A stretch of DNA of 64,000 nt from Candidatus Cloacimonadales bacterium (GCA_963662275.1 OY759316.1:1984001-2048000); one strand, 5' to 3'. Positions 7,178 to 50,181 are shown, counted from the first letter of the stretch. Program-made: numbers and translations. The notes: a model not told the origin generated them from the sequence alone.

Positions 7178-7570
7178 TTCTGCAATGCCAATCTTCAATC
7201 TTCCATTTTCCATCTTAAATTCTGCAACCTCTGCCAAATCTTCAATTTTAAATCTTAAATAATTTCAAATTTATTTGAAATACTCCCTCCTATATGGCAG
7301 AAGGTGACAGCTAACAGGTAACAGCCGACAGGTTCAGAACACAGAAGAAAATGCCTCAGAAAGCAACTTCGAACTTCGCACTTCGTACTTCCAAATAAGT
7401 CTCATGGAAGATAAAAAATACATAAAAGAAATAAAAACTAAAGAAAATCTAAGGAAAATCTAAAAAAGTCTAGATGATCCCTAGATGATCCCTAGATGAA
7501 ACCCAGCTCATATTTTCAGTGGAAAATATGAGAATTAAAAAGTAAAAGTGAAAAATTAAAAATTACAGAT
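7178..7570. repeat. Cluster of short heptamer arrays (ATCTTCA-, ACAGNNN-, ACTTCGN-type) and 11-bp repeats (CTAGATGATCC)
   Basis: Visible 7-bp and 11-bp periodicity; TTCTGC boundaries. Confidence 0.65.
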
Positions 7571-7670
7571 GAAAGAGTCGAGATTCGCGGAAGTAAATCC
7601 GTCTGTTCTTCATCCCCCATTGAGAAGGGGGGTAGGGGGGTCTATTTTGTGAACTGTTTCCTGTTCGCTG

Positions 7671-8123
7671 TTAGCTTCTGCTCCGGTATTGCAAAATTCT
7701 TCTCATATCTTTTCGCACTAGCATCGGACAATTAGGAAGTTCATCATAGATCAAGTCCAGTCTATGTTGAGAAATTGGTTGTAGGAATTGGATTTTACCA
7801 TCTATTAATTTCTTCTGTAAATCGCTTTTAGTTACTTTATAAATCCGATATAATTGAATCATTGTGTCCTTAGAAAAACTACTTTCTGTATTAGCTTCAA
7901 TGAAGATACCAGGAAGATCATAGAATTTATATTCTCGTTCAATGTTAGAAGTAGTAAACAGGAATAACGATTCTTCATTGTCATCATTACAGATTACGAT
8001 TAGCCTTTTGTCTGTAGGTGTTCCACCATCTGTATATTCAACATCCAACATCCTAATAACAGTTCCAGCTATGAATAATTGAGTAAGCTGTTCTTCAATA
8101 GTTGGTGTGGAAGTATTCATCAA
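7671..8123 (-). CDS. Putative toxin, PemK/MazF-like fold
   Basis: ATGA overlap with the upstream Panacea gene; 'GTVI..DVEYTDG..PTDKRLIVI...LFLFTTS...F..DTMIQL.RI' pattern resembles PemK-like proteins. Confidence 0.55.
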   Translation of the reverse strand: MMNTSTPTIEEQLTQLFIAGTVIRMLDVEYTDGGTPTDKRLIVICNDDNEESLFLFTTSNIEREYKFYDLPGIFIEANTESSFSKDTMIQLYRIYKVTKSDLQKKLIDGKIQFLQPISQHRLDLIYDELPNCPMLVRKDMRRILQYRSRS

Positions 8124-8671
8124 TGAAATATAAGGTTTATTTCTTTATCGGTTCGTTCCATTTCTCTATTAATTTCTATAAGCTCTTCTCGTTGTTCCGC
8201 ACTTAACTCATGGGCAATTTTATCTATGGTAATTTCTGCACTAATTGGAGTATGAATCCAGGCATATTCTTTATGTGTGTAATCAACTAACTGATTCGCA
8301 GGTACGCTGCCGTATTGCTCCAAAACCTGGTTTAAGCAATCCAGTTCTGATTCAGAAAATTCATCCTCATCAATTGGTTCGATACAACTTAAAGTCCTTA
8401 ATTTATTTGGAGCAAATTCAAGATGCTGTGATAAATAGTTTTTTGTGTGTTCTGATAGCATCTCAGAAGAATAATCAATAAAATTCAGAATATCTTTCGC
8501 TACAGGACCATAACTCCATTTATAGTATTTTACACCAGTGATAGATCTGCCATATTTTAATAAGTGAAATTTGTCTGCAAAATAGATCAGTTTCAACACT
8601 TTCAATTTGGTTACTCGAGGTATTTTACTCGAAATGTACGTAAGCACATTGATTATCTTCCTATCGTCCAT
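8120..8671 (-). CDS. Panacea-domain (DUF4065/SocA-like) antitoxin
   Basis: KVLKLIYFADKFHL..YGRSITG..Y....YGPV and 'L..V...YG....L...TH.E.AW' motifs; GGAGG RBS. Confidence 0.88.
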   Translation of the reverse strand: MDDRKIINVLTYISSKIPRVTKLKVLKLIYFADKFHLLKYGRSITGVKYYKWSYGPVAKDILNFIDYSSEMLSEHTKNYLSQHLEFAPNKLRTLSCIEPIDEDEFSESELDCLNQVLEQYGSVPANQLVDYTHKEYAWIHTPISAEITIDKIAHELSAEQREELIEINREMERTDKEINLIFH

Positions 8672-9302
8672 AATACCTCCCTAACGTCCACCTATTAACA
8701 TAATTTAATATAATATAATTGTGCAATGAATATTCCAAAGTTAATTAGGTCAAGGCTTTTTGTTTTGTTCTGCTCTAGTCTCTATCATCTTCTGCAATGC
8801 CCTGTCAGCTATCAGCTATAAGCTTCTGCACTGCCAATTCTTAATTCTTCACTCTTAATTCTTAATTAAGCGAAGCGTTAAGCCTTCTGCCAGTCTGCCA
8901 ATTCATCGCATTTCACTTGTTTCAATCCTTGTTATGATGGATAGTGGTTATAGACCTGTCCGCTGTACCCTGTCCGCTGTCCGCTTCTGGTGAGTTTCAA
9001 TCCTTGTTATGATGGATAGTGGTTATAGACGGTAAGTATCTGCATCCATAAAATAGTCATATCCTTGTTTCAATCCTTGTTGCATATTCCGCTCAGAAAA
9101 GCCACCTTGTCCGATTAAGTTGAGCCAGTGCTCCACTATAATTGAGCCATACTATATTGTCTTTTTGAGCCACACTACGTATCTGATCGCCATATAACAT
9201 AATATCTGCAGTGTTTGGCAAGATTCTGTTCCGGCTGCTGCGGAGAGAGGACGTAGTCCGAGCGAAGCAGCAGCCGGAACGTTGCGCCTAATGGGCAATA
9301 GG

Positions 9303-10058
9303 CTATTTTCTATTGATTTGTTTTATTCCCTTGCGTTCTCTCATTGACATCTTCCCATCGATAAATATATGGTGAGAGTTATGAACAAGCCGGTCAAGGA
9401 TGGCATCAGCGAGAGTGGGTTGTCCAATCTTCTCGTGCCATCCTCCGGTTTTGAACTGAGAGCACAAGACCGTAGATGCTTTGGAATACCTCATCTCGAC
9501 TATTTCAAAGAGATCTTTAGCTTCCTGTTCGTTTATCCTGGTTAACAGCCATTCATCAAGTATCAGCAGTTTAGCATTGGCATATCTGTCTATGACTCTT
9601 TGATGCCCGCCTTCACAACGACTAACAGCGAGGTCATCCAACAGTTCAGGCAGGCGGACGTATTTTACAGTGAAGTATTTCTTGCAGGCAGCTATGCCAA
9701 ATGCGCAAGCCAGCCATGTTTTACCGCTTCCCGATGCTCCGGTGATGATGATATTCTCATTCTCTCCAATAAAAGAACATGACGCCAATTCAACGATTGC
9801 ACTACGATCAAGTTTCCTGTCTTCATGGTAGTCAATATCTGCTATACTCGCATTACTGAACTTGAAGCCGGCACCGTGAATCAGACGTTTAAGCCTATTA
9901 TTCTTGCGCTTATCCCATTCTATATCAACCAGCATGCCAAAGCGCTCGTCAAAGCTGTAGTTTTCCAGTGATTTATCGTTAACCTGATTTCGGTAGGCAT
10001 CTGCCATGCCATTTAACAGCATCTCTCGAAGTTTAATGATAGTAGTATTATTAGTCAT
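9303..10058 (-). CDS. istB: IS21 helper ATPase IstB
   Basis: Walker A GASGSGKT, LLILDEW, DAILDRLVH. Confidence 0.95.
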   Translation of the reverse strand: MTNNTTIIKLREMLLNGMADAYRNQVNDKSLENYSFDERFGMLVDIEWDKRKNNRLKRLIHGAGFKFSNASIADIDYHEDRKLDRSAIVELASCSFIGENENIIITGASGSGKTWLACAFGIAACKKYFTVKYVRLPELLDDLAVSRCEGGHQRVIDRYANAKLLILDEWLLTRINEQEAKDLFEIVEMRYSKASTVLCSQFKTGGWHEKIGQPTLADAILDRLVHNSHHIFIDGKMSMRERKGIKQINRK

Positions 10059-11603
10059 TTTCGTTTCTCCCGTAGTAACCTGATTCCCGGCTGATGGCAT
10101 ACTCTGAGCTTTGCACCGCTTCAGCATCATTATCGGTGCTTCTCTTCTGTTCATTTGAGTTTAGAATAGTCTTGATGATCCTGTAACTCGGATTTGGCGT
10201 GTAGCTTAATGCTCGTTGACAGGCACTTTCCAAATTTTGACAACCATACTTTTTTGAAGCGCTTAGCACAGCCATGCAAGTGCGATAACCTTGCTGTTCA
10301 ACCCGGCATGATCCCAGGATTGACTTGATTACCAACTCAGTGCTTGTTCCAATAGTACAAGCCCAGTCAACAAAACTTTCTGCATCCCATTTACGGTATT
10401 CCTGATGATCCCTGGGCATATGCTCGGCATTGGTCTGATATCGCTCAGAGTTTCCCTCCAAGCCCCTGTGGGAGGCTATTCTGACTGAATTGTAAAAGAC
10501 CTCCACCACCCTGGCGGTTAGGCGAATATCCACTTTGTGGTGGATATATTCATAAGGCACTGAATAATACTTCTTATCAACCATAATGTGATAGTTGTAA
10601 CCAACCGTTGCTGTAGCCCATGTAGCCAGTTCATAAGCCGCCTCCGGCAAGGGAAGCAGCTGCTCTCGTTCTTCTTGCCAAAATACGCTTTCACGGGAGC
10701 CATCTTTGACCTGGAAAGGCTGAAAGGCTTACTGTTAAATTCAGCCAACTTTTCCCTGATTGCCTTATTGAGTTCTCTAAGCGAGAAGAAACTCCTGTTG
10801 CGAAGAGCAGCCAGAATCCAGGTCGAGATAATACCTACTGTCCCTTCAGCACTTGCCTTATCCTTGGGATGCCTGACCCTGGCAGGGATGACCACTGTAT
10901 TGTAGTAATTAGCCAGTTCATTATATGTCCTGTTGATTACACTGCCTCCACTGGATACCCGCTCCACACCAGTCTTGAGGTTGTCAGGTACCAGTATTTT
11001 TGCCACTCCGCTCATATATTGAAAACAGTTTACATGAGCCTGAATCCAGTTACACAGACTCATATTGGGAAGTGCTTCAACATAAGCATAGCCACTATAG
11101 GGCAAAACAGCGACAAAGACTGGAACTTTAAGCTGTGCCCCGGTAAGATTGTTTGTCAAATACGCAGATTGACCTGCCCAATCAACCTCAAGCTTCTCAC
11201 CCGGCTTGTGATGAATGCGCATGGTTGCCTTGGTTTGATGAGCATATTCCGTGTAAAGCTCGCAGAATCGACTGTATTGATAGGGTATCGTCTGATTCTG
11301 ACGGCATAACTCCGAATATTCATGCCATAACAACGACAAGGTTACACCGCTTTTACCCAATTCCTTGTGAATATGCTCAAAATCAGGCATCCTGCGACAA
11401 CCTTCGATATTTACAATGGGAAATAGCATCTTCCCCAATTCCCTGTCACTAATTGTATCAGAAATTGGCCAGAAAACAGCTTGTTGGGCTGCTGCCCTCA
11501 GCACCTTGGATACGGTATTGCGGGAGCACGGCAGGCTTTGAGCAATATTCCTTTCACTAATTCCTTGCGCCTGTAAACGCAAGATTTCTCGATAATTGGT
11601 CAT
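10051..11603 (-). pseudogene. istA: IS21 transposase IstA, frameshifted by an 8-bp tandem duplication at 10714-10729
   Basis: ORFs 10518-11603 and 10051-10650 join into a full IstA (KPFQVKDGSRESVF) if one GAAAGGCT copy is removed; collinear with the intact IstA at 60798-62342. Confidence 0.9.
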
Positions 11604-13184
11604 TTTGTGACCTCCATTGTGTTATTTGCGCTCTTCAGCGCATTGCCACATGGTTAATCACACTCTGATTTATGCAAGGTGGCTCAAAGTAGAATATTCC
11701 CTGGCTCAATTATAGTGGAGCACTGGCTCAACTTGGGAATACTCATGGCTCAAATTCATAATATTATTCAACTTGTTATGATGGATAGTGGTTATAGACC
11801 GTGTCCTCTACTTTTAACAAGTTTAGGTACTCTACGTTTCAATCCTTGTTATGATGGATAGTGGTTATAGACGCTAAGTTATTGATAGTCAAGAAGTTAG
11901 AAATGAGTTTCAATCCTTGTTATGATGGATAGTGGTTATAGACAAATGTGACCACTGAATGCTTAGCAATGTAGAAAATGTTTCAATCCTTGTTATGATG
12001 GATAGTGGTTATAGACTTCACAGGAATTTCGTATGTATGAATATTTTTAACAAGTTTCAATCCTTGTTATGATGGATAGTGGTTATAGACCCTTATCCAT
12101 TTTCTTCATACTTGCCACGTTTTCTAAGTTTCAATCCTTGTTATGATGGATAGTGGTTATAGACATTCCTTGTCACTTCTATTAGTAGCTGGTTCAAATA
12201 TGTTTCAATCCTTGTTATGATGGATAGTGGTTATAGACTCCTTGCTTTGTTTGGCAGTTTCAAGAATTGACATGTTTCAATCCTTGTTATGATGGATAGT
12301 GGTTATAGACAATACATATTTTTACTTATGAAGATTTGATAGAATGTTTCAATCCTTGTTATGATGGATAGTGGTTATAGACGGAATTAACTTCTTTATT
12401 GGCAATTCTTGAAACTGTGTTTCAATCCTTGTTATGATGGATAGTGGTTATAGACAAATGTATTCAAAGTAACACTACCAGAACTAGTGAAGTTTCAATC
12501 CTTGTTATGATGGATAGTGGTTATAGACCTTAAAAGTAAGTTGTCAACTGAATTGCAAAATCTGGTTTCAATCCTTGTTATGATGGATAGTGGTTATAGA
12601 CGGAGATGTTATGGACACTGACACTGACATTACAATGTTTCAATCCTTGTTATGATGGATAGTGGTTATAGACTTCAGTTGTGGTTCTGGAGTTACCATA
12701 ATTGAAAGAAGTTTCAATCCTTGTTATGATGGATAGTGGTTATAGACGCTTCATTCTCTGAGGGAGTTTGATGCAGAATACCGGTTTCAATCCTTGTTAT
12801 GATGGATAGTGGTTATAGACGAAATCAGTTGCATGTTCGAGCAGGGTATTGACATGTTTCAATCCTTGTTATGATGGATAGTGGTTATAGACACGCTAAT
12901 ACATAGACGGCAAATGATCCTGTGATTAGTTTCAATCCTTGTTATGATGGATAGTGGTTATAGACTTCATTCCACACCAACTACAATCATCGTTACAAAC
13001 ATGTTTCAATCCTTGTTATGATGGATAGTGGTTATAGACTTACGATTGGAATGACATTGGCTATATAAGAGGTCAGTTTCAATCCTTGTTATGATGGATA
13101 GTGGTTATAGACAGGAATAAATCCGATAATGGTTATATATCAGGAAGGTTTCAATCCTTGTTATGATGGATAGTGGTTATAGAC

Positions 13185-13400: not shown

Positions 13401-13413
13401 TCTTAGACCACGA

Positions 13414-13530
13414 TATAGCAGGAACGGCGTCCTACTCTATGCAGATAGCAGGAACGGCGTCCTACTCTACGCAGATAGCAAGAACGGCGTCCTACTCTAC
13501 GCAGATAGCAAGAACGGCGTCTTGCTTTAC
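13414..13530 (-). repeat. 4 x 30-bp tandem GTAG-REP (GTAGAGTAGGACGCCGTTCCTGCTATCTGC)
   Basis: Tandem hairpin units immediately after the cas4 stop. Confidence 0.85.
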
Positions 13531-13531
13531 A

Positions 13532-14185: not shown

Positions 14186-14479
<294 letters not shown>

Positions 14480-14611
14480 CTATCCTTCTTTTAAATCTTC
14501 CATCTTATATTCTCATGGCTATCTCCGGTACATTTCGATACGATTTCTCCTTCGTCGAAATCACTCAATGAACCTTCTTCTCTGCAATTTTTCATTTTTA
14601 ATTCTTAATTT

Positions 14612-15595
14612 TTAATTCTCTAAGTCTTCCCTTTTTCCAATGAGCGTATTCGCGAAGGCATGAGCGCTAGCCTGGACGGATTGAATTCTTTTCATATTCT
14701 TATTACCCACACGAATGATCTCATCAAAGTACTCCATCAATGCTGGTACTAATAGTTTCTTGCCACTGTCATTCAGTGTAACTCCGTTATTGATTGTTTC
14801 GATGTTCTCATCTGTTACTTTATGACGTGAAAACAAATAGAATACAGGTTCTTCAATAATTATCCGAAATGGTTCGATGAAATCATAGACGAGAGAGACT
14901 TTGTTGTAGTTGTCCGTATGCAGGAATCCGATATAAGGGTCTAATCCTGCTATGATAAGAGCTTTCTCCACTTTCCCATACAAGATGCCATACCCGTAAT
15001 TCAGGAAAGCGTTAAACGCATCTTTTGCAGGGCGGGAACTCCTCCCCTCAAACTGATACTTATCAGGTATTAATTGAGATAAGCATTTGAAGTATGTCTT
15101 TCCGGCATTTCCTTCATATCCCATTAAGGTCGGTCCAATCAATTCAGGACATCCTTTCAATTCGCCAATCTTATTTCCGAAATCCCGGATACTGGTAATT
15201 TCTTTCTCCAAATCCACTTCACTTCGCTTGGAAACGAGTTTTGCTATTAAGGAAGCCTGATTCCTTACTTTTGAAGAAACCCATTTCTTAACAAACTCTG
15301 CCCCAGCATCAGTAACACTGATTTCCAGAAGCTTACGTCTAATGAAAGTTGTACTACCTAATTTAGGAAACCACACCCTGCCATAGGGATTACCAAATTC
15401 ATCAAGGAACAGAATATCAATGTTATGATCCATCGCCAGCTTGATCACATCCGAAGTAATCATGACGCCGTTGCAGATAATGATGGAACTGACCTTTTCC
15501 GGTGATATCTTCTTCTTATCATTCCCATTCTGTATTTCAAACATGTCTGCTGTCTTATGCAGCATTGTTCCGTAGGTGGTGATGTAGAGTTCCAT
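14612..15595 (-). CDS. cas1: CRISPR-associated endonuclease Cas1
   Basis: MGYEG.A...YF, FNAFLNYGYGILY, GLDPYIGFLH, SLVYDFIEPFR; TAATG overlap with the cas3 stop. Confidence 0.96.
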   Translation of the reverse strand: MELYITTYGTMLHKTADMFEIQNGNDKKKISPEKVSSIIICNGVMITSDVIKLAMDHNIDILFLDEFGNPYGRVWFPKLGSTTFIRRKLLEISVTDAGAEFVKKWVSSKVRNQASLIAKLVSKRSEVDLEKEITSIRDFGNKIGELKGCPELIGPTLMGYEGNAGKTYFKCLSQLIPDKYQFEGRSSRPAKDAFNAFLNYGYGILYGKVEKALIIAGLDPYIGFLHTDNYNKVSLVYDFIEPFRIIIEEPVFYLFSRHKVTDENIETINNGVTLNDSGKKLLVPALMEYFDEIIRVGNKNMKRIQSVQASAHAFANTLIGKREDLEN

Positions 15596-17916
15596 TAAAA
15601 ACAGCAATCCTCATATTTGGGTTCAGTATAATAACCGGTATCTTTATCATATTGTGGTGAGAGAGTATATTGATCTATAATCTGTAAATCCGATTCTGAA
15701 TCTTGCTTACCTGATTTTGTATGAACAAGAACAATATACTGGCTCATTTCTGACCAAATCAGTTTCAGTTTTCTCTTCTTTTCAAACCTATCGAGAATAT
15801 CATTTCTCTTCAGATCATAATATCTTTGAAGAATACTGGATGCTTCATCATCAAATTCAATAAACACTGGCACCTTGGGCAATTCTTTAATCAGTTCAAA
15901 CGCATATTGGTTTTTACCAGTGCCTAAATGAAAAGCCTGATGATATTGCAGTTTCTCGATAAACTTAATTAATTCCTTTGAATCCTGATTATTCTTTCTT
16001 TCCATCAAAGTAGAATAGTATTGATGTGATAGCTCATAAAAAGAGGATTCCCGAATTACTTCTTCAATGGGAACAATCTTCTTTGTACAATCAATTAAGA
16101 CTGTATCATAGATATAACTCCAATAGTATTTGTTCTTATCATCGTGCAATTCCCACAATTCAACGATACCATTGCTCGACATTTCGTTTCTTTTACATCT
16201 GCCGGCAGCTTGAAAGATCGCATCCAAAGGAGCCATATCACGATAGACGATATCTAAATCAATATCAACACCAGCTTCCACAAGCTGAGTTGAAACAACG
16301 ATCTTACCTTTGTTTGATTCTTTTATTTCCCTGATTCTTTCCAGTCTGTGTTTTGGAATGATATTCGTCGATAAATAGACCAAATCAGCTTGAGGAATTT
16401 GTTCATTAATTGCATGATAGACATGTAGTGATGATTTAATTGTATTTAGGATGATAAGCCTGCTTTTATCAGGTTCAGCTTTAATCTGATCAACCAGGAA
16501 TTTAATGAAACTATCTATGCTTGATGGATTCTTCCTAATTAAGGAAATCCGATTCATCTCATGGAAATACTCTTTTTTATGAGTTGCCAACTCTGTAATT
16601 TCATTCTTTTCCTCTGAAAAAATCAACGGCATGGTTGCAGTACAGAGAATGAAATGAATATCAAGCATCTCAGCCATTTTAGTGAATTGTGTATTTATCA
16701 AAGCCCAATATTTGAAATCAATTGTCTGAACTTCATCCAGGATTATTATGGAATGAGCCAAAGTAAACATTCGTTTCAGCATGGAGTTCTGATTGGTAAA
16801 GATACAATATAGCAACTGGTAAAAAGTAGTAATGATCATTTCACTTTGCCAGGTTTCAATAGGAAATAGCATATCGTTACCTGCATCATCTTCATCAATC
16901 ATATCTCTCAAGCTATTATGATGATGTATGAGGAGATTCCCAAGGTTCTGATCAATATTATTTTCTTCCAGTATCTTCTTCATAACATCAGCATTCTGAT
17001 CAATAATGGAAGTAAATGGCAAAGCATAGATAATTCTCTTCTTTTGTTTATACCTGTCACGTAAAATCATAGCCGCTTGCAAAGCTGTAAGGGTCTTACC
17101 GCTACCAGTTGGTAAATTGATGGAGAGAATCCTTGAACCGCTCTTAGTCACAGAGTTGATAACATCCAAATATACTCTTTCACGGAGTTCATTGATTCTT
17201 GCAGATTGAGTCAGACTCTTTTTGAATTCCGGTATGAATTCTTTGTTCCATTGAATCTCCACATGATCATCATCCGTTCTCATATAAATAGCAGAATTCT
17301 TATCTGCATAAATCAGGATTGAGAAAAGATAATTTAATACTTGAAAGTCATTCGGTTGAATCATCTGCTTCCATTTAATCAAAGAAATTCCTGAAAAACT
17401 GCTATCCTTGAATTGAAGCTTCTCTTCCAGATTAGCGGCTGTAAAGTATTCAGGTGAAATCAATAATCTGAAAATAGGTTCAAGTGAAATGTAATCAATG
17501 TTTTGGTTAATTTCACTTAGCTGATGCATTTCTAAATATCGAACACCAATTTCATTGAAATCAATTAAATCCTTATGATGGGATTTGACGATGATATATC
17601 CATAATATGCTTGAATATCACTTACTTTCAAAATATCCCGTAGATAATGGAAAACCAATAAGGCACTCAGTTCAGCATGGTTTTTTAATTCTGTATTATG
17701 CTTATCCGGCTCACGTATGTATCTTTGAAAGAAGATAGAGGCTTTTCCGAAATCATGCAGTAACAGTGCTGCTTCCAAGATTGGACGATATTCAGGGAAT
17801 AATCCATTCTGATCAAATATGTTCAATCCAGTTTGTTGAACTGTTATTAAGTGATCACAAAGTAACACTTCAGGATGAGAAAGCAACTTATAACCAGCAG
17901 ATTTTATCTGTTCCAT
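15595..17916 (-). CDS. cas3: CRISPR-associated helicase/nuclease Cas3
   Basis: HD domain (HDFGK, HAELSA), PTGSGKT, DEVQ, STQLVEAGVDID, QAAGRC; start position approximate. Confidence 0.95.
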   Translation of the reverse strand: MEQIKSAGYKLLSHPEVLLCDHLITVQQTGLNIFDQNGLFPEYRPILEAALLLHDFGKASIFFQRYIREPDKHNTELKNHAELSALLVFHYLRDILKVSDIQAYYGYIIVKSHHKDLIDFNEIGVRYLEMHQLSEINQNIDYISLEPIFRLLISPEYFTAANLEEKLQFKDSSFSGISLIKWKQMIQPNDFQVLNYLFSILIYADKNSAIYMRTDDDHVEIQWNKEFIPEFKKSLTQSARINELRERVYLDVINSVTKSGSRILSINLPTGSGKTLTALQAAMILRDRYKQKKRIIYALPFTSIIDQNADVMKKILEENNIDQNLGNLLIHHHNSLRDMIDEDDAGNDMLFPIETWQSEMIITTFYQLLYCIFTNQNSMLKRMFTLAHSIIILDEVQTIDFKYWALINTQFTKMAEMLDIHFILCTATMPLIFSEEKNEITELATHKKEYFHEMNRISLIRKNPSSIDSFIKFLVDQIKAEPDKSRLIILNTIKSSLHVYHAINEQIPQADLVYLSTNIIPKHRLERIREIKESNKGKIVVSTQLVEAGVDIDLDIVYRDMAPLDAIFQAAGRCKRNEMSSNGIVELWELHDDKNKYYWSYIYDTVLIDCTKKIVPIEEVIRESSFYELSHQYYSTLMERKNNQDSKELIKFIEKLQYHQAFHLGTGKNQYAFELIKELPKVPVFIEFDDEASSILQRYYDLKRNDILDRFEKKRKLKLIWSEMSQYIVLVHTKSGKQDSESDLQIIDQYTLSPQYDKDTGYYTEPKYEDCCF

Positions 17917-20142: not shown

Positions 20143-21285
20143 TTACAGTTTACCGCCATCAAAGCAATTTGCCAAAAACAACAGCGACCAAGGCGGTGAT
20201 CTTGGTTTTCCGGTAATTGAAGCATGCTGTGTCATCTTTGATTTGCAATTAGGGCAGAGGTCTTTTTCAAATTTGGGAATTACAAAAGTTTTAGCTGTCT
20301 GATTCTTGTCATTAGAATCGGACTTTGCTGGGAAAAAGCTGTTGACCATCTCCCAGACAGATTTTGCCGCCGGACTGAGAAATCCGTAGTATCTGATTTT
20401 CTGAAATCCCTGCGGCAGAACATGCATCAGGAACTTATTGATAAACTCCACGGAGTCGACGCTTTTAAAGGCGAATTTAGCTGAACCTGCCGGCTTGTAT
20501 TTAAAGGTTACCAGCCCGTCCTTTTCCCAAAGGATGCGATTGTTGGTGATGGCGGTCCGATACACATAATTGGCCAAATAAGTCAGAGCCTCCCGACCTT
20601 TTCCGACGGGTCGGGAGTCTGTGACAAACTCTTTTTGCTGCCAGACTAGCGGGGATATCCGACCAAACAGATGCTGATTTTCCAGTCGAAGCAAATCACG
20701 GAATTTTGCCCGGTAAATCACCGAAAGAGCTTTGACCGGAATCAGGAACTTATTGCCTGCTTTTTGCCATTCCTTTCGTTCTTTATTCCAAGCTCCGCCG
20801 GGGACTATATAATGAATATGAGGATGATATTCAAGCTGCCTTGTCCAGGTATGAAGTACCCCGGTAAAGCCTGAAACGCCACCGGCATATTTGGGATCTG
20901 AAAGCAATGTCTTTAAGGCTTCAGATGATGCTTTGAACTGAAGATCATAAAGCAGTTTCTGATTTGACAGGCATGTTTTGTGCAGTTCCCGGGGTATGGT
21001 GAAAGTTACCATGAAGTACTTAACCGGCAGCAGTTTGGCAAGCTGCTTTTCCAGCCATTTCGCTGAATCATTACGGCCACACTTCGGGCAGTGACGGTTT
21101 TTGCAGGAATGATAGGAATAATGCAGTTCCGCACATTCCTGGCATAAATAGACTTCTCCGCCCAGTTCAGGTGTCCGGCAAAGGAGAATATCTCTGATCG
21201 CTCTTAAATGGCTTTCCGGTGACTGGTTTCCATATTTTTCCAGATACTCGGACAGGTTGTTTTTGAGAATCCTGCTAAAATCCAT
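20143..21285 (-). CDS. IS91-family (Y2 HUH) transposase with N-terminal Zn finger
   Basis: CQEC...SCKNRHCPKC, FMVTFTIP, LHTW...HPHIH, YLANY, HVLPQGFQKIRYYG. Confidence 0.93.
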   Translation of the reverse strand: MDFSRILKNNLSEYLEKYGNQSPESHLRAIRDILLCRTPELGGEVYLCQECAELHYSYHSCKNRHCPKCGRNDSAKWLEKQLAKLLPVKYFMVTFTIPRELHKTCLSNQKLLYDLQFKASSEALKTLLSDPKYAGGVSGFTGVLHTWTRQLEYHPHIHYIVPGGAWNKERKEWQKAGNKFLIPVKALSVIYRAKFRDLLRLENQHLFGRISPLVWQQKEFVTDSRPVGKGREALTYLANYVYRTAITNNRILWEKDGLVTFKYKPAGSAKFAFKSVDSVEFINKFLMHVLPQGFQKIRYYGFLSPAAKSVWEMVNSFFPAKSDSNDKNQTAKTFVIPKFEKDLCPNCKSKMTQHASITGKPRSPPWSLLFLANCFDGGKL

Positions 21286-23829: not shown

Positions 23830-23955
23830 GAACAGACAGTAAGCTCGGCATCTTACTCCACTCAGACAGCAGGAACGGCGTCCTGCTCTACGACACAAAA
23901 CAGTAAGATCGGCATCTTACTCCACGCAGACAGCAGGAACGGAGTCCTGCTCTAC
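23830..23955 (-). repeat. REP cluster (alternating GTAGAGCAGGAC... and GTGGAGTAAGATGCCGA... hairpins) between cas6 and cas8b
   Basis: Four hairpin units; the first GTAG overlaps the cas6 TAG stop. Confidence 0.8.
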
Positions 23956-34858: not shown

Positions 34859-34880
34859 CTTATCTCCTATGATTTGCTGA

Positions 34881-35100
34881 AGGTGTTAGGTGTTAGGTGT
34901 TAGGTGTTAGGTGTTAGGTGTTAGGTGTTAGGTGTTAGGTGTTAGTACACCTGTGCCCTGTACCCTGTACCCTGTACCCTGTACCCTGTACCCTGTACCC
35001 TGTACCCTGTACCCTGTACCCTGTACCCTGTACCCTGTACCCTGTACCCTGTACCCTGTACCCTGTACCCTGTACCCTGTACCCTGTACCCTGTACCCTG
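34881..35100. repeat. Bipartite heptamer array: (AGGTGTT)x9, then (CCCTGTA)x20
   Basis: Directly visible; fills the gap between the HD gene stop and the prfB RBS. Confidence 0.97.
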
Positions 35101-35104: not shown

Positions 35105-36253
35105 TCAGTGTTTCCAGGGAACAAGAAAATCTTTGATTTCTTCATTGTAATAGAAATCTGTCATTGTAGCGATAAAATCACGCACTTTCTCAGCATCAGA
35201 AAAAGAAGAAAGATATTGTTCATTCTTCTGATTCAGAAAATGCATATAGATCTTTGACTTCTGGTTTTTTGCCTCGATATCAGCCATGTATTTATCAAAA
35301 AGAAGACCCATTGTTCGGAAGATCACACCATTTGAATGCTTCACATTCGCATCAGTATAAATATGTTGATAATTGAATTTCTTAAGCTTGGCGAGATAAT
35401 AGGATGTCTGTTCATCAAAAGCAACTTGATCCTTCTCGAAACTATTCTGAATGACATTTTTTACTAACGCATCAATAATAAGACTATTCGTATTTCCTAG
35501 AAATGCTACGCAATCATCGGGTAATTCTTCTCGTTTCAGTATTTTCAAACGTATTGCATCTTCTATATCCTGTCCAATATATGCGATTGTATCAGTGATT
35601 CTAACAACGCAGCCTTCAAGTGTTGCCGGCATCCAATTTGTAGGAGTTCCATTTTTGATATTTTCTATATAGGTTTGAATATCCTCTTCTTTTTTTGCAC
35701 GATTAGGAACTAAAACCTGGTTATGAACTTCACCATCATGTGAAATAATACCATCTCGAACCTGGAAAGTCAGATTCAAACCTCTTCCTTTCCTGGAGAT
35801 ATGATCAACGATGTGCAAACTTTCAATATTATGATGAAATTCACCAATACTATAATTACGGCATACACTGCTTAAGGCTATTTCACCATCATGTCCGAAA
35901 GGAGCATGACCGAGATCATGTCCTAATGAAATTGCTTCGATCAATTCCAGGTTTAAACCCAGGAATTTTCCAATTGTCCTGGCAATCTGAGAAACGTAGG
36001 TTGTATGCAGATTACGGTTGGTCATTTCCTCATCGATCAGGTTACTAAAAGAAAAGACCTGTGTCTTTCCATGATACCGGCGATAAGCACCGCTGTAGAG
36101 AATTCTATCTCGATCAAGGGCAAAAGGTGCCCTGATATCATCATCGACTTCGACATTCAAACGCCAGGCTGAATCATCTTGGCAGGCGTATTTGGACATC
36201 GTGCTTTCATACATCGATTTTACTTTATTCTGTATTTCTGAAAAATCATACAT
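35105..36253 (-). CDS. dGTP triphosphohydrolase-like HD-domain protein
   Basis: DRDRILYS.AYRR..GKTQVF, R.LHT..VSQIAR, GHDLGHAPFGHDGE, V.DFIA.MTD. Confidence 0.88.
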   Translation of the reverse strand: MYDFSEIQNKVKSMYESTMSKYACQDDSAWRLNVEVDDDIRAPFALDRDRILYSGAYRRYHGKTQVFSFSNLIDEEMTNRNLHTTYVSQIARTIGKFLGLNLELIEAISLGHDLGHAPFGHDGEIALSSVCRNYSIGEFHHNIESLHIVDHISRKGRGLNLTFQVRDGIISHDGEVHNQVLVPNRAKKEEDIQTYIENIKNGTPTNWMPATLEGCVVRITDTIAYIGQDIEDAIRLKILKREELPDDCVAFLGNTNSLIIDALVKNVIQNSFEKDQVAFDEQTSYYLAKLKKFNYQHIYTDANVKHSNGVIFRTMGLLFDKYMADIEAKNQKSKIYMHFLNQKNEQYLSSFSDAEKVRDFIATMTDFYYNEEIKDFLVPWKH

Positions 36254-36255
36254 GT

Positions 36256-36894
36256 TTACCTCGCTTTCCTGTATTGAAAGAAGCATGGTTCAAAGCCTTC
36301 CCTACGCTTTTCCATTTCAAAATATGTTTCTATATGGTCTTCATCAGCTATCTTCGAAATGTGCCCAGGATAGTTGGGAACAAAATCATTTCGTTTTGAG
36401 AACTGAGAAATAATCCATTGCTGATACCCCTGGTGATCCGTAGATAATTCTACTACTCCATCTCTGGAAAGCATGTAAGAAAGGCAGTCAATTAAATCCT
36501 GCTGGATTAACCTATTCTTGATATGTTTTCTCTTAGGCCAGGGATCAGGATGTTGAATATAGATTCGTTCCACAGACTTCTCCCTGATCTTTTCCTTGAT
36601 GCACACATCGACAAACAATTCAATCAGTCTAACATTTGGATGTTTTTCAAAATCCAGTTTTCTCAGGATTGAGACGACTCTTTTATGTTTTAATTCAATA
36701 CCTACGAAGTTTATCCCTGGATTTCTATAAGCTGCTTGCGACAGAAATTCACCTTTACCAGAGCCAATTTCCATGTGAACTGGATGGTCATTACCAAATA
36801 TTTGCTGCCAGTCAAGCGGTTCGGTAACTACTGAAGAGAGCATAAAAAAGTCACATTTCTGCTGATAATCAACTGGGATCTTTCTCATCATCAT
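36256..36894 (-). CDS. trmB: tRNA (guanine-N7)-methyltransferase
   Basis: EIGSGKGEF, FVGIE, PDPWPKRKHIKNRL, STDH, T.FE. Confidence 0.93.
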   Translation of the reverse strand: MMMRKIPVDYQQKCDFFMLSSVVTEPLDWQQIFGNDHPVHMEIGSGKGEFLSQAAYRNPGINFVGIELKHKRVVSILRKLDFEKHPNVRLIELFVDVCIKEKIREKSVERIYIQHPDPWPKRKHIKNRLIQQDLIDCLSYMLSRDGVVELSTDHQGYQQWIISQFSKRNDFVPNYPGHISKIADEDHIETYFEMEKRREGFEPCFFQYRKAR

Positions 36895-40860: not shown

Positions 40861-40869
40861 GGAGATTAC

Positions 40870-41148: not shown

Positions 41149-44123
41149 TGCAACAAAACTCGGAGGAAAGGGCTTCTGATTCAATCGCTATTATCTATGC
41201 TCAATTACTACGTATTGATAAAAAAGAGAATGAATCCCAGGTTATCACTTATACTCTTCATTGTATTGACCTAAGGAAAAATGAATCATTTGTAGTTGAA
41301 GCCTGTTTTGCAGAAAGACAGCCTGGAAATGATTTAGATTTCGTTTCTCTTGCCTGGGAAGGTGCACTAGTCAATTTCATCAATTCAACAATAAGCACGA
41401 ATGATAGAACTCTATTTGTCCAGCACCCGGATACCATGATTGTTCTCGAACCGGACTATTTGATTGATGCATCTGCGATTGCTGAATGTTTCATGGATCG
41501 AACGTATAATCTGATGTTGTATTTTTTGCAGCGTTGCCTACCTAGTCCTTCAAGCCCATCAATGATTTCCGGGATCTTGGTAAATCAACTATTAGATGCG
41601 TATCTCGAAGAAGAATGTCCTGATTTCCAAACAGTTTTCAAACAAGCTCTCATTTCCAATATCTTCACGGCTCTTTATATTGGTTCGGAAGAACTGAATA
41701 GACTACGCAGGCAGGTTACTCTGGAACATCTGCCGGTGATTCGGAACATAGCTGCATTGTGGAAGGATAAGCAGAAAACGCTGGAACCTTCATTTATTTC
41801 AATTGATTATGGTTTACAGGGAAGATTGGATGTACTTTTGGAAGTTCGAAGTGCAGATGAAGAAGATCACCCTGCCTCTCTTCTCAAGGGGGGAAGTACG
41901 AAAATGGAAGATGAAGAAGATCACCCTGCCTCTCTTCTCAAGGGGGATAATAATAGGGATATCATCGAACTGAAGAGCAGTAAAGCCAGGGATAGGGATG
42001 TTTGGACAAATCACAGGATGCAGGTAGTATGCTATCATCTGATTTTGCGTTCAGTTTATGGAAATAGCCGTAAAGGAAATAACTACATTTTGTATTCTCG
42101 TGCCCCGAATCATCCTCTTCGGGAAGTTCCAACATCCAATGTATGGGAAAAACAGGTTATTTCAGTTCGTAATGCTATCATTTCCAAGATTCATGCGATC
42201 GCCTTCGAAAAAGATTCACTATTGAATATGAATGTTGAGAATTTCGGTGAATTCCCTATTTTTAAAAAAGATGACCTGGTTGAGTTTCAATACCTGGTAA
42301 AACAGCTATCTTCCATCGAATCCATTTATATTGATAAGTTCGTCCAATTTCTCTTTAGGGAATTATGGCATACGAAAGTGGGTGTCTCATCCCAACTGAA
42401 TAAAAGAAATTATGGTTTTAGTGCACTCTGGAAGTTGTCGAAAAATGAAAAGAAAGAAGATTTTACTATCATGGAAGGACTTTCATTTTCTTCAATTATT
42501 GATAATCAGATCATCTTCCAGGTCAATCAAGATAAGAATGTTACGAATTTTCGGAAAGGTGATATTGTTATTCTTTATCCAGGCTGTGCAGATGAGAGAA
42601 TCCTTCTGAAGGATCAAATACGGAAAGGATTCATTGTAGAACTGAGTCATACTCAATTAGTACTGCAAATGAAGAATCCTGGCAGTTTACAGCATCTTCT
42701 GGATCAGTATCGGCAATGGGTCATCGAGCATGATTTTATGGAAAGCGGTACGATAAATATGATTCGGGGTATGTTCAATTTTATGCGGGGAGACAAGACA
42801 AAAAGAGAATTAATTCTAGGTATTACTCCTCCTAAATCATTATCTATTCAACTACCAGACCGTGATGATGAATCGGAAACCATCATTCTGAAAGCACTTG
42901 CTGCACAGGATTACTTCCTGGTGCAAGGACCTCCCGGAACTGGGAAGACATCCCGCATCCTGACTTCATTGGTTTCGAGGATTCTGGTTCAAACTCATGA
43001 ACATATGATGATACTGGCGTTTACCAATCGGGCAGTTGATGAAATCTGTGACCGATTGGAGCAGTATGATATTGATTTCATCCGTCTTGGCAATGGGATG
43101 AATACGAAGTATCATTATCTTCCCCAAATGATACAGGAAATGACATTCAAAGAGATTGAAGAACTAATCTCTTCGACTCGTGTGTTTGTTTCAACCGTAT
43201 CCTCTTTGTTAAGTCAATACCAGGAATTGTTGAGAATCAAGAACTTTGATACTCTCTTCGTTGATGAAGCTTCACAACTCCTGGAACCGCATTTGGCTGG
43301 AATTCTCATCCATTTCAACCGTTTTATCCTGATTGGTGACCAAAATCAATTACCCGCTGTTGTTTCTCAAAACGCAGATGAATTGTTTTCTGCTGATCCT
43401 TTATTTTCCGATTTGGCATTTCATAGTCTGCACCAATCTTTATTTGAAAGATTATACCGAAGATGTGTGGAGCAGCATTGGAATCATGCTTTCGATATGC
43501 TGACAAACCATTATCGGATGCATTCGGATATCGAAAATCTAGTGAATCCTTTCTATCATAACAGATTGAAAGCTAATTCCGCGAGACAGTCTCTCGAATG
43601 GAATAAAATAGCAGCTACCGGGGAAAGGATTGATGAAATTCTTGCCAGTAGCCGGGTTATTTTTCTTGAAGTATCACCCAATACAGAATTCAAACGTTCT
43701 GCAAATGAAGCCAGGATAGTTGATTTACTGCTGCAAGCTATTTATAAACAATACGGGGATTCTTTTGATCAGCAGAAAGTCGGTGTAATAACAACCTGGC
43801 GTGCCCAGATTAATGAAATTGTCTCACATATCAGCGAACCGAATCTGATACGTGATGTGACGGTGGATACAGTTGAGAGATTCCAGGGATCAGAACGTGA
43901 TATCATTATTTTTTCAACGGCATTATCTGCCCCTGGACAATTACAAATTATTCAGTCAATTTCTCCAGATCAAATGGTTGATAGAAAATTAAATGTTGCC
44001 ATCTCTAGGGCACGTGAACAATTTATCCTTCTTGGAGATGCCCTGATATTAAATCAGTCGCTTCAATACAGACGTATCCTGGATTTAATCAGAATCATGC
44101 ACGGTTATTATGTCGTGGAGTAA
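41148..44123 (+). CDS. Dna2/Nam7-like SF1 helicase with N-terminal PD-(D/E)xK nuclease
   Basis: LEPDYLID, GLQGRLD...IELKS...Q...Y; QGPPGTGKT, FTNRAVDEI, VDEASQ, IGDQNQLP, YRMH, DTVERFQGSERD, KLNVAISRA. Confidence 0.9.
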   Translation: MQQNSEERASDSIAIIYAQLLRIDKKENESQVITYTLHCIDLRKNESFVVEACFAERQPGNDLDFVSLAWEGALVNFINSTISTNDRTLFVQHPDTMIVLEPDYLIDASAIAECFMDRTYNLMLYFLQRCLPSPSSPSMISGILVNQLLDAYLEEECPDFQTVFKQALISNIFTALYIGSEELNRLRRQVTLEHLPVIRNIAALWKDKQKTLEPSFISIDYGLQGRLDVLLEVRSADEEDHPASLLKGGSTKMEDEEDHPASLLKGDNNRDIIELKSSKARDRDVWTNHRMQVVCYHLILRSVYGNSRKGNNYILYSRAPNHPLREVPTSNVWEKQVISVRNAIISKIHAIAFEKDSLLNMNVENFGEFPIFKKDDLVEFQYLVKQLSSIESIYIDKFVQFLFRELWHTKVGVSSQLNKRNYGFSALWKLSKNEKKEDFTIMEGLSFSSIIDNQIIFQVNQDKNVTNFRKGDIVILYPGCADERILLKDQIRKGFIVELSHTQLVLQMKNPGSLQHLLDQYRQWVIEHDFMESGTINMIRGMFNFMRGDKTKRELILGITPPKSLSIQLPDRDDESETIILKALAAQDYFLVQGPPGTGKTSRILTSLVSRILVQTHEHMMILAFTNRAVDEICDRLEQYDIDFIRLGNGMNTKYHYLPQMIQEMTFKEIEELISSTRVFVSTVSSLLSQYQELLRIKNFDTLFVDEASQLLEPHLAGILIHFNRFILIGDQNQLPAVVSQNADELFSADPLFSDLAFHSLHQSLFERLYRRCVEQHWNHAFDMLTNHYRMHSDIENLVNPFYHNRLKANSARQSLEWNKIAATGERIDEILASSRVIFLEVSPNTEFKRSANEARIVDLLLQAIYKQYGDSFDQQKVGVITTWRAQINEIVSHISEPNLIRDVTVDTVERFQGSERDIIIFSTALSAPGQLQIIQSISPDQMVDRKLNVAISRAREQFILLGDALILNQSLQYRRILDLIRIMHGYYVVE

Positions 44124-44547
44124 GATTCCGATCTTACTGAATCATAGCTCCGACTTCAAGCGGTTAAGTCTTGTGGAGTAAGATTCCGATCTTACTGAAT
44201 CGTAGCACCGACTTCAGGCGGTTAAATCTTGTGGAGTAAGTTTCCGATCTTACTGAATCGTAGCGCCGACTTCAGGCGGTTATGTCTTGTGGAGTAAGAT
44301 TCCGATCTTACTGAATCGTAGCACCGACTTCAGGCGGTTATGTCTTGTGGAGTAAGATTCCGATCTTACTGAATCGTAGCACCGACTTCAGGCGGTTATG
44401 TCTTGTGGAGTAAGATTCCGATCTTACTGAATCGTAGCACCGACTTCAGGCGGTTATGTCTTGTGGAGTAAGATTCCGATCTTACTGAATCGTAGCACCG
44501 ACTTCAGGCGGTTATGTCTTGTGGAGTAAGATTCCGATCATGCTGTC
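44117..44547 (+). repeat. 7 x 58-bp tandem BIME-like units plus a partial eighth (GTGGAGTAAGATTCCGATCTTACT hairpin + GTAGCACCGACTTCAGGCGGT)
   Basis: GGAGTAAG recurs at 44117, 44175, 44233, 44291, 44349, 44407, 44465, 44523. Confidence 0.95.
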
Positions 44548-44568
44548 TTTATAAAGAGAGGTTGAAAT

Positions 44569-46949: not shown

Positions 46950-47097
46950 AGCATGACGCCGATCATGCTGTCTGTTGCGGAGTAAGATTCCGATCATGCT
47001 GCCTGTTGTGGAGTAAGATTCCGATCTTACTGTTTGTTGTGGAGTAAGATTCCGATCTTACTGTCTGTCGTGGAGTAAGAATCCGATCTTACTGTCT
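46946..47097 (+). repeat. 5 x 31-bp tandem REP units (GTGGAGTAAGATTCCGATCTTACTGTCTGTT)
   Basis: Same hairpin as 44117-44547; the first GTAG overlaps the glycosyltransferase TAG stop. Confidence 0.88.
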
Positions 47098-47369
47098 CCG
47101 AATTATTCTTTAGGATACTCTAAGCTACTCGGAAAAAAAGATTTTCGTTACCAATGATCAGAGCAGAGTTCTCCGAGTGAATAGATGGTCATTGAGCGAA
47201 GTCGAAATGCATCTATTAGTATCGAGGAGACGACATTACACTCAAATCGACCTTTCATCCTCGGCAGCGAAAACCTGTTTTCAAGGAAGTTCAGAAGTGA
47301 TATCTTCTATTCTGCAATTCGTAATTCTAATTCGTAATTCGTAATTCTTAATCAGAATTTCTGCTTCTT

Positions 47370-49712: not shown

Positions 49713-49728
49713 CTTTTCTCCAGGATTA

Positions 49729-49757
49729 TCAGGCAGAGAGACCAGCTCTCTGCCTGA
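49729..49757. terminator. Hairpin TCAGGCAGAGAG-accag-CTCTCTGCCTGA, possible terminator or attenuator
   Basis: 12-bp stem just upstream of the 47370-49712 start; no clear U-tract. Confidence 0.4.
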
Positions 49758-49879
49758 ATCATGTTTTGTCTCTTTACTTCTGTTTATTTTGATACACGTT
49801 TTAGGATATTAAGTAACTTTTATCAGGTGTTAGAGATGAACCATCGCCTTCACAAGGATGACAGTGCTGTTATTCTGAT

Positions 49880-50181
49880 CTTCTGCCCTGACACCTGGCA
49901 CCTAGTACCTAGCACCTAGCACCTAACACCTAGCACCTAACACCTGGCACCTAGTACCTAGCACCTAACACCTAGCACCTAGCACCTAACACCTAGCACC
50001 TGGCACCTGGCACCTAACACCTAGCACCTGGCACCTGGCACCTAACACCTAGCACCTGGCACCTGGCACCTAACACCTAACACCTAGCACCTAGCACCTA
50101 GCACCTAGCACCTAGCACCTAGCACCTAGCACCTAGCACCTAGCACCTAGCACCTAGCACCTAACACCTAACACCTTCTGC
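49880..50181 (+). repeat. 41 mosaic heptamers (CTAGCAC/CTAACAC/CTGGCAC/CTAGTAC) bounded by CTTCTGC at both ends
   Basis: Units span 49888-50174; CTTCTGC at 49880-86 and 50175-81. Confidence 0.97.

Follow-up and report, generated by a model that had tools for sequence, protein, structure and literature searches.

The stretch of DNA examined here, positions 1984001–2048000 (64,000 nt, hereafter the window) of the single-contig genome of a Candidatus Cloacimonadales bacterium (GCA_963662275.1, OY759316.1; 4.38 Mb, 39% GC), carries short tandem arrays of 7-bp units, or heptamers. Alongside them lie a type I-B CRISPR-Cas locus interrupted by insertion sequences (IS) of the IS21 and IS91 families, several hairpin arrays resembling repetitive extragenic palindromic (REP) sequences, and many genes whose ends encode type IX secretion system (T9SS) sorting domains. 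These T9SS tails suggest that the host belongs to the Fibrobacteres-Chlorobi-Bacteroidetes (FCB; Bacteroidota-like) group. A first-pass annotation of the window, made from the sequence alone, had pointed out that arrays of unrelated unit sequence end on a common boundary heptamer, NTTCWGC. All the array instances it quoted are present, one of them with limits shifted by a single base (7297–7333 instead of 7298–7332). We describe here that the arrays include discrete modules bearing two terminal words of their own, TCTGC, that these modules occur in about ten heptad families in the intergenic regions of two species and in a temperate phage, and that inverted pairs of them flank small gene cassettes as arms, chiefly those of PF05635 four-helix-bundle genes.

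Heptamer modules in the window

The complete design is found at 7179–7225 on the plus strand, where TCTGC (7179–7183) and AATGCC precede 4.4 copies of an AATCTTC-type unit that end on a second TCTGC (7221–7225). A linker reading TCTGC-AACC-TCTGCC joins this module to the next one (7230–7260, plus strand), which has the word on its 5′ side only and consists of TCTGCC and (AAATCTT) ×3.6. The module at 7297–7333 lies on the minus strand, with about 4.5 copies of a CCTGTYR-type unit and the end CCT-TCTGC; its plus strand reads GCAGAAGG.... A plus-strand array without TCTGC, (AACTTCG) ×3.9, follows at 7365–7391, and this array together with its left flank recurs at genome position 1830198.

A second cluster begins with a complete short module at 8791–8829 (plus strand) that reads TCTGC (8791–8795), AATGCC, CTGTCAG CTATCAG CTATAAG CT and TCTGC (8825–8829), the last word being also the first word of the module at 8825–8867 (plus strand; TCTGC, ACTGCC, (AATTCTT) ×4.6). 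The array of the latter (8836–8867) is the inverted partner of an A/T-rich minus-strand array at 7533–7565 (AATTTTT-type on that strand, ×4.7), and the two bracket a two-gene cassette (7671–8668) composed of a 149-aa open reading frame (ORF) without family match and a SocA/Panacea antitoxin-like gene. Just beyond this cluster, a 38-nt CRISPR spacer with a full type I-B repeat on either side (8956–8993, plus strand) is itself a heptamer module, with 4.3 copies of a CTGTCCG-type unit (CTGTCCG/CTGTACC) and then TCTGG-TGA.

The remaining modules are more scattered. Two are found on the plus strand at 14581–14617 (TCTGC at 14581–14585, then AATTTTT-type units ×4.6) and at 47311–47364 (TCTGC at 47311–47315, AATTCGT-type units ×5.4, AATCAGAATT, and TCTGC at 47360–47364). 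Between a dGTPase-like gene and prfB, a minus-strand array with a decayed word (34876–34945; (CTAACAC) ×9.3, ending CT-TCAGC) abuts a plus-strand array without TCTGC (34945–35100; (GTACCCT) ×22.1) that lies 4 nt behind the stop-side boundary of the minus-strand ORF 35105–36286. An expanded module at 49882–50181 (plus strand) is made of TCTGC (49882–49886), CCTGA, (CACCTRG) ×40.7 (49892–50176) and TCTGC (50177–50181), and lies 3 nt behind the stop codon of a T9SS-tailed minus-strand gene (50185–52677). In four public sequencing runs, all of them available as contigs only, the intergenic repeat blocks 6705–7733 and 8763–8900 reach depths up to ~90 times those of their flanks and the assemblies are broken there; one contig each of two of the four sets has a 7-nt insertion near 7660–7663.

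A terminal word at the array ends

Seven is the commonest tandem period in the host genome. Tandem Repeats Finder (TRF) reports 684 period-7 rows covering 23.5 kb of the 4.38 Mb, while periods 8 and 9 contribute 267 and 296 rows, nearly all of them with two copies. Among the 530 period-7 arrays with at least 3 copies, TCTGC was present within about 14 nt of an array end on one strand only in 250 cases, on both strands in 1 and on neither in 279, where chance would account for ~2% per 19-nt window. To place the word more exactly, the arrays were oriented by the strand containing more C than G, that is the G-poor strand. TCTGC then begins on the first base 3′ of the array (offset 0) in 84 of 495 oriented arrays; on the 5′ side it directly adjoins the array, ending 0–1 nt before it, in 83 of 495, over a background of ~1.5 TCTGC per position taken 30–63 nt away; the offsets are those set by the TRF end points. 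The genome-wide TRF test proposed in the first-pass annotation therefore gives a strong enrichment.

The word is polar and base-exact. It lies on the C>G strand in 178 of 190 arrays, and a count over 510 arrays gave a 5′-side word TCTG[C/A] in 144+77 and a 3′-side TCTGC in 123, with opposite-strand controls of only 4–12. In the host genome CCTN4CCTN4CCT is followed by TCTGC 64 times, by TCTCC 4 times, by TCAGC twice and by TCTGG or TGTGC never, and none of the one-letter variants of TCTGC tested was enriched at array ends. Near arrays, TTCTGC occurs 218 times and TTCAGC 25 times; at one orthologous array the congener, a second species of the same genus, has TCTGC where the host has TCAGC, an ordinary point mutation. 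The A variant (TCAGC) is a rare decayed copy of the word. The shared terminal word contained in NTTCWGC is thus real, but its core is TCTGC (TCTG[C/A] on the 5′ side) and the W = A form is not enriched. The proposed common in-phase register did not hold either: the distance between the two flanking words modulo 7 is mostly 1–2 (48 of 69), which means that they do not stand in one heptad register.

TCTGC is not generally enriched in intergenic DNA, with 2.30/kb away from arrays compared with 2.53/kb in coding sequence. As a control, the 195 period-11 arrays with at least 3 copies have a terminal TCTGC once and a terminal GCAGA twice. Because the terminal word is strand-specific, base-exact and common to ~10 unit families, slippage alone is insufficient to account for it, as had been argued from the few arrays of the window.

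Module length and composition

A module can be summarized as (TCTGC)1–3, an optional A/C, ~31 nt of G-poor heptads and a final TCTGC. Its body has four full units and a partial one, which amounts to five copies of a conserved core (e.g. ACCT, ACTTC or AATT). The array length has a sharp mode at 30–33 nt (188 of 664 non-overlapping arrays), there are 256 arrays of 4.x copies but just 45 of 5.x copies, and the spacing from TCTGC to TCTGC is mostly 36–42 nt. The units fall into 167 canonical types with ~10 major families, all of which are G-poor on the word-bearing strand. Mismatches within arrays are concentrated in one unit position, as in position 7 of ACTTCGN; the mean share of that position is 0.586 as opposed to 0.434 ± 0.012 for a uniform null model, in which none of 500 simulations attained the observed share, the low entropy at the other unit positions being partly forced by the family definitions. 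A possible master-copy signal, a C variant present in unit 3 of AATTTTT-type modules at 23% vs 6% and 16% in units 1 and 2, was too weak to be retained.

The 5′ word is frequently doubled or tripled (TCTGCTCTGC). Neighbouring arrays at most 40 nt apart have the same orientation in 40 cases and opposed orientations in 12. Since the linkers of same-orientation neighbours typically hold two words (TCTGC-N3-12-YTCTGM), each module carries both of its own ends.

Distribution in the order and in a phage

The sample of the order comprised 151 genomes, namely the host, its congener (the only one in the sample) and 149 others; relatives are not independent of each other in the genome and locus counts given here. 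The pattern CCTN4CCTN4CCTTCTGC occurs 64 times in the host, 10 times in the congener and once in the other 149 genomes, and its reversed-pattern controls gave 0. The array census of the congener covered 1.14 of its 3.2 Mb and found the word on 41 of 105 arrays, never on both strands. Of 60 other genomes sampled from the order, 25 have CCT-core heptamer arrays, at far lower numbers, and none of 13 arrays checked in two other genera has the word. In another genus of the order (3 genomes) the heptamer unit itself is CCTCTGC/CCTCAGC, and a provirus record with a PF05635 gene carries (GGCAGAA/GGCAGGA/GGCAGGT)n, from which it is clear that TCTGC can also be part of a heptad unit.

A pattern scan of a viral collection gave 127+ matches, most of them single and probably due to chance, and only multi-match records were considered. 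A 35-kb temperate-phage record with matches to portal, head protease, tail-fibre-like, integrase and methyltransferase proteins contains 12 modules that agree with those of the host in their (TCTGC)2–3 leader, families and 3′ TCTGC. They are uniformly oriented, opposite to 20 of the 21 long ORFs of the phage, and a single stretch of 45 nt is all that the record and the host genome have in common. Within the 151 genomes, the module design is confined to one genus, to which the phage has to be added.

Genomic context of the arrays

Gene calls for the context counts were crude longest ORFs. Outside of these lie 18,665 of 23,217 array bases, so that the arrays are mostly intergenic. Where the two flanking genes are co-directional, 96 arrays have their G-poor strand antisense to them and 43 have it in sense orientation. 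Of 515 arrays, 77 (15.0%) have an edge no more than 5 nt from a stop-codon boundary, compared with 3.4% of random intergenic 31-mers, a difference that is inflated because the arrays are rich in stop triplets. The array at genome position 117549–117580 reaches into the 3′ end of a gene, whose stop codon it provides, and the C-terminal tail of the product differs from that of the congener ortholog. In the half of the genome with positive skew 58 of 131 arrays are in '+' orientation, and in the half with negative skew 73 of 117; this replication-strand bias is slight, gene orientation is a confounder, and we draw no conclusion from it.

Most arrays are solo or have unrelated neighbours, with 34 inverted like-pairs vs 379 unrelated neighbours. 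Apart from PF05635 genes, the inverted like-arrays enclose a HEPN gene, a SocA/Panacea pair, an ADH, a Na/Ca exchanger and four ORFs without Pfam match, a set too mixed to make up a single cassette class. We also considered that the word might act as a stem clamp (GCAGAAGG...CCTTCTGC) that holds paired arms in register. Among 26 purine-to-pyrimidine pairs it was found 7 and 6 times at inner ends vs 2 and 4 times at outer ends; given that it occurs at the inner ends of paired arms as often as at the outer ones, TCTGC is not merely a stem clamp.

Module pairs as arms of PF05635 cassettes

All 5 PF05635 matches in the host genome (4 intact genes and 1 fragment, at 1.27, 1.31, 4.06, 4.17 and 4.20 Mb) sit between inverted heptamer arrays, and the arms are built from four major families of this genome, namely ACCTARC (twice), CCCTGTA, AATCTTN and ACTTCGN. 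The window has no PF05635 gene, the profile matches in the genome all lying elsewhere, and its arrays are gene-less or bracket other genes. The same arrangement extends far beyond the host. Among 80 loci of PF05635 relatives (from Acidobacteriota, Verrucomicrobiota, Planctomycetota, Bacillota, Chloroflexota, Cyanobacteria and other phyla), which hold 193 period-7 TRF rows in 243 kb, 57 have arrays on both sides (complementary in 54), 18 on one side and 5 on neither. The arms have a median length of 32 nt, with 71 of 146 at 28–35 nt, similar to the mode of 30–33 nt in the host. A link between heptamer tracts and four-helix-bundle genes, which the first-pass annotation had mentioned for other bacteria, is therefore borne out at 5 of 5 host loci and at 57 of 80 loci from many phyla. 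Within the order, 43 of 61 genomes, the host included, have PF05635 genes. Zhang and Ye (2013, PMC3936711) mention such four-helix-bundle genes wedged inside cas operons, and our literature search found no publication connecting PF05635 with heptamer repeats.

The two closest solved structures to the PF05635 protein have five chains each in the entry, a hint that it could form a pentamer. By sequence, PF05635 proteins are putative relatives of bAvd, the accessory protein of diversity-generating retroelements (DGRs); the match of the PF05635 protein to the corresponding profile, PF22296, is below the cut-off. In five distant organisms (Chlorobium, a proteobacterial metagenome-assembled genome, Nitrosomonas, Pseudanabaena and Akkermansiaceae), the PF05635 cassette occupies the same point between two conserved coding-like stretches, and these flanks look like one gene (...gagtattacattcgacc... 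and ...atcaaaatctgcga(y)cc...).

Turnover at paralogous and orthologous sites

We compared 28 recent paralogous site pairs in which both flanks are at least 85% identical. The array length is the same in 17 pairs, differs by k × 7 nt in 8 and otherwise in 2, and in 1 pair the array is replaced by another family. Some modules grow or shrink by slippage in 7-nt steps inside a fixed TCTGC frame; four paralogs of the T9SS locus of the window have 3, 23, 41 and 49 copies between unchanged TCTGC words.

At the median protein identity of 73% that separates host and congener, 384 syntenic adjacent gene pairs could be compared, with an array only in the host in 13, only in the congener in 5 and in both in 4. 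The array-bearing syntenic spacers are thus unlike in presence in 18 of 22 cases. In the 4 spacers filled in both species the unit families differ, and in one of them the two arrays occupy a single position directly behind a shared stop codon but run in opposite directions. Empty orthologous spacers commonly measure just 2–70 nt, the filled ones being 100–600 nt longer, with REPs and G-rich hairpins present as well, which argues that the arrays came with new DNA and not from pre-existing sequence. Comparison of orthologous sites, as suggested from the outset, hence uncovered gain and loss of arrays with spacer DNA between congeners, whereas recent paralogs are only stable or altered by k × 7 (25 of 28) and never empty, a behaviour that partly corresponds to the gradual slippage named in the first-pass annotation as speaking against a mobile system.

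Search for an associated enzyme

No candidate enzyme had been noticed in the window, and none was found there by us. The genome has 15 Y1_Tnp (HUH) matches, of which 4 are IS200-like and 11 are REP-associated tyrosine transposase (RAYT)-like genes, each of the latter flanked by its own hairpin REP family. The 600 nt on either side of the 14 Y1 genes examined contain no real heptamer array, a single run of 2.3 copies being attributed to chance. The genome also has 18 matches to the reverse transcriptase family RVT_1. From their size and copy number, 17 of them look like group II intron reverse transcriptases, and the 18th lies in the terminal, 893-aa ORF of a probable type III CRISPR operon, an ORF that is probably an RT-Cas1-type fusion. 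The RVT_1 match nearest to any PF05635 gene is ~60 kb away, and none lies within 50 kb. 

A general explanation by REPs and RAYTs was discarded, hairpins not being enriched at the word (within 30 nt of TCTGC in 49 of 358 cases near arrays, 14%, vs 388 of 3000 random positions, 13%) and RAYT genes being devoid of heptamer arrays. One REP family ends ...CTAC-TCTGC and is often followed by an array (31 occurrences genome-wide, with 16 intergenic cases listed).

CRISPR loci and other repeats

The only Rfam matches in the window are to CRISPR-DR and cover 8919–9030 and 11836–13184. They correspond to the type I-B CRISPR array (37-nt repeat, CRISPR-DR7), which is split by an IS21 element at 9303–11600 (istB 9303–10151, istA 10518–11600), with two repeats and one spacer stranded at 8919–9030. 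The stranded spacer (8956–8993) has no other match in the genome at up to 5 mismatches. An IS91-family transposase gene and a tyrosine recombinase gene (20143–22155; also 62798–63937) are found inside the cas operon between cas7/cas5 and cas8b.

At the probable type III CRISPR locus (genome 3089000–3108000), both degenerate array ends are filled with heptamer modules fused to partial repeats (2200–3000 and 16290–17300 within that stretch). The first 13 nt of its repeat (GTCTCAATTCTTA) are one base away from a typical module start (TCTGCAATTCTTA).

The REP families of the window are tandem hairpin units of 29–64 nt at 13415–13521, 23832–23958, 24906–25103, 44108–44539, 46959–47097 and 53389–53472. 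Period-11 arrays are the second commonest tandem class of the genome (363 TRF rows, mode 3–4 copies, units such as TCATCTAGGGA and GAAACAGGAAT); they are present in the window at 7429–7499 and 52894–52948, are without TCTGC as a class and resemble parts of larger dispersed elements.

Discussion

Tandem heptamers have been noted in other bacteria, notably as the short tandemly repeated repetitive (STRR) sequences of cyanobacteria, which are said to have been originally described by Mazel in 1990. STRR sequences and heptanucleotide long simple sequence repeats (SSRs) have tandem 7-bp units, several families per genome, intergenic locations and sometimes the ability to form hairpins, their function being unknown (PMC2670836; Mrazek 2007 as summarized in the introduction of PMC4679880). 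The arrays described here resemble them in the 7-bp tandem units, the over-represented period, the several families and the mostly intergenic location. They differ from the STRR of filamentous cyanobacteria in their host, which has T9SS cargo genes and in whose genome a search for the photosynthetic reaction centre gene (Photo_RC) found none, so that it is not a cyanobacterium. A literature search returned no account of a fixed terminal word, a five-core length or module chaining in heptamer repeats. The TAACTGA direct repeats of marine Beggiatoaceae, some Cyanobacteria and Bacteroidetes (MacGregor 2015, PMC4679880) come close, as they are also short intergenic heptamer sets, oriented relative to genes, with a patchy spread that suggests horizontal transfer by a mechanism as yet unknown. 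However, they have one unit, lie mostly a few nucleotides upstream of start codons and have no reported flanking word, whereas the modules have many families and one word and stand mostly behind stop codons.

Among known elements, ORF-bearing 23S rRNA intervening sequences, composed of a stem and an S23p/PF05635 ORF, are paralleled by the inverted complementary ~32-nt arms around the PF05635 genes at 5 of 5 host loci; the arrays of the window differ from such cassettes in that no PF05635 gene is among them, and most arrays are solo or beside unrelated neighbours. The small dispersed repeats (SDRs) of Nostoc described by Elhai et al. in 2008 are reportedly very small (21–27-nt units with a predicted hairpin), have been proposed to be mobile and are said to be embedded in tandem heptameric repeats. 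Compared with the SDRs, it is here the heptad tract with its end words that forms the unit. The REP/REPIN-RAYT systems share with the modules their tiny size, great abundance, intergenic position often behind stops, lineage specificity, clustering and a short conserved end word (GTAG in REPs). They differ from them in that the heptad bodies are G-poor direct repeats rather than palindromes and in that no RAYT gene is flanked by arrays.

The borders of the modules, TCTG[C/A] at the 5′ side and TCTGC at the 3′ side on one strand, may be comparable to those of IS200/IS605 elements, which have a short same-strand word at both borders (the target pentanucleotide on the left and the cleavage site on the right) and insert in a strand-polar manner. 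Unlike these, the modules are not enriched in hairpins and have no associated TnpA, the 4 IS200-like genes being without arrays nearby. Integron cassettes with their 7-bp core sites also have a short same-strand word at both borders, but the modules contain no attC-like palindrome and are not associated with an IntI; the tyrosine recombinase at 21286–22155, which lies beside the IS91 transposase gene and is the sole integron-integrase-like match of the window, scores 180 bits with the integron-integrase model, the cut-off being 265. The system differs from a DGR, as no Avd-family gene stands beside a DGR reverse transcriptase and the nearest RVT_1 match is ~60 kb away, and from a CRISPR array in its conserved word of only 5 nt instead of identical repeats of >20 nt, one CRISPR spacer of the window being a module.

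The reading we favour, with a probability of about 0.45, is that the arrays are REP-like, lineage-specific, miniature modular dispersed elements whose terminal word is recognized in trans and some of which are later expanded by slippage. In such a REP-like lifestyle whole modules would be inserted and lost as units, and TCTGC would be the word that a trans-acting machinery recognizes or joins at. The heptad body would diverge quickly while the ends are kept, and slippage could then expand some bodies between the fixed TCTGC words. The non-autonomous element, one of two forms that the first-pass annotation had given to its trans-acting enzyme idea, fits with the possession of two ends, with gain and loss together with spacer DNA, and with the range of one genus plus a phage.

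Several observations weigh against this reading. No mobilizing enzyme for the modules was identified in the host genome. None of the 28 paralogous pairs includes an empty site, and no filled/empty pair with a readable junction was found. The bodies are not near-identical, the commonest 28-mer in short arrays having 7 occurrences, which implies either that there was no recent burst or that bodies diverge fast. In addition, the orientation bias with respect to transcription (96 vs 43 in the host, 12 of 12 in the phage), the stop adjacency, the fixed module length and the concentration of mismatches in one unit position would be equally expected of a function selected at the RNA or DNA level.

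The most serious rival starts from these latter features. The modules might be selected cis-acting punctuation signals in RNA or in one DNA strand and not be mobile at all, the heptad tract offering a host protein a periodic platform and TCTGC/GCAGA being its cap or an RNase site, in a dialect common to host and phage. We regard this as unlikely, although it would readily explain why the G-poor strand is preferentially antisense and why the phage modules oppose 20 of its 21 long ORFs, why a stop-codon boundary is near in 15.0% of arrays vs 3.4% at random, why the length mode is as narrow as 30–33 nt and why variation is confined mainly to one or two unit positions. A compact phage genome that retains 12 copies would fit as well, and speculation of a like kind on STRR and TAACTGA repeats can be found in PMC2670836 and PMC4679880. 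It is difficult to reconcile, however, with the fact that just 4 of 22 array-bearing syntenic spacers are filled in both congeners, and then by unlike families, or with the single CCTN4CCTN4CCTTCTGC match in the 149 other genomes of the order, where the design was not found. Modules also accumulate in degenerate CRISPR flanks and beside REPs, typical junk sites, and about half of the arrays lack the word. Being a mobile element and acting as punctuation would not be mutually exclusive, as the REPs show.

Slippage combined with descent fits less well and appears rather improbable. Here the word would be the frozen edge of a founder array or cassette, edges would escape homogenization, and no trans factor would be required. 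The series of 3, 23, 41 and 49 copies at paralogous sites in an unchanged frame is what one would predict, as are the 8 of 28 paralogous pairs that differ by k × 7 with none empty, and the point decay of TCTGC in the congener to TCAGC in the host. That the word can be a heptad unit, as in CCTCTGC/CCTCAGC of another genus or (GGCAGAA)n of the provirus, is in keeping with this view. Yet a frozen edge would not be expected at both ends, on one strand and in ~10 unrelated unit families, nor would the two flanking words be out of one register (modulo 7 = 1–2 in 48 of 69). The mode of 4.3–4.7 units is not a decay from a minimum, the empty orthologous spacers of 2–70 nt in the congener point to arrays that arrived with new DNA, and the modules are also present, independently, in a phage that has just 45 nt in common with the host.

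An enzyme that primes or aligns at TCTGC and makes heptads iteratively from a short template, in a telomerase-like or RT-like manner that sets a run of ~4.4 units, fits less well and seems very unlikely, since, for all that it would account for the uniform module length, the word at both ends and the change of whole-array family at orthologous or paralogous spots with length kept, and could draw on the putative relationship of PF05635 to bAvd, this second form of the first-pass idea is unsupported by reverse transcriptases that look like group II intron enzymes or, once, fall in an ORF of a probable type III CRISPR operon, with none within 50 kb of any PF05635 gene, by within-array variants that are position-specific and not whole-unit copies, by the stability of recent paralogs, and by the lack of any template RNA candidate among the Rfam matches of the window, which are to CRISPR repeats only.

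A more specific proposal concerns the PF05635 proteins themselves. It is conceivable, albeit rather improbable, that heptad modules are their substrate: a pentamer of each paralog would read the five cores of its own family, and the complex, together with a host nuclease or polymerase, would cut, join or copy at TCTGC. The solo modules would then be non-autonomous derivatives of the cassettes that phages carry from cell to cell.

Catalogues of heptamer repeats, be they called STRR, TAACTGA repeats or long SSRs, go back decades, but neither an origin nor a function has been assigned to these repeats, and polymerase slippage is the explanation usually given. In the present genome they resolve into discrete modules with a base-exact word, a five-core length, a strict strand polarity and a range of one genus plus a phage, and their design is the same as that of the arms of PF05635 cassettes of many phyla. 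This turns a vague statistic into something testable through lineage-specific terminal words, insertion polymorphisms, RNA ends and PF05635 binding. There is also a practical side for genome annotation, as short-read assemblies break at the modules, the ends of ORFs are lengthened or cut short by them, and they can pass for CRISPR-like or regulatory repeats. To our knowledge, the PF05635 family has had no known function since its description. If the modules were indeed the substrate of these proteins, this would be the first function for the family and would provide a mechanism for bacterial heptamer repeats, the STRR included.

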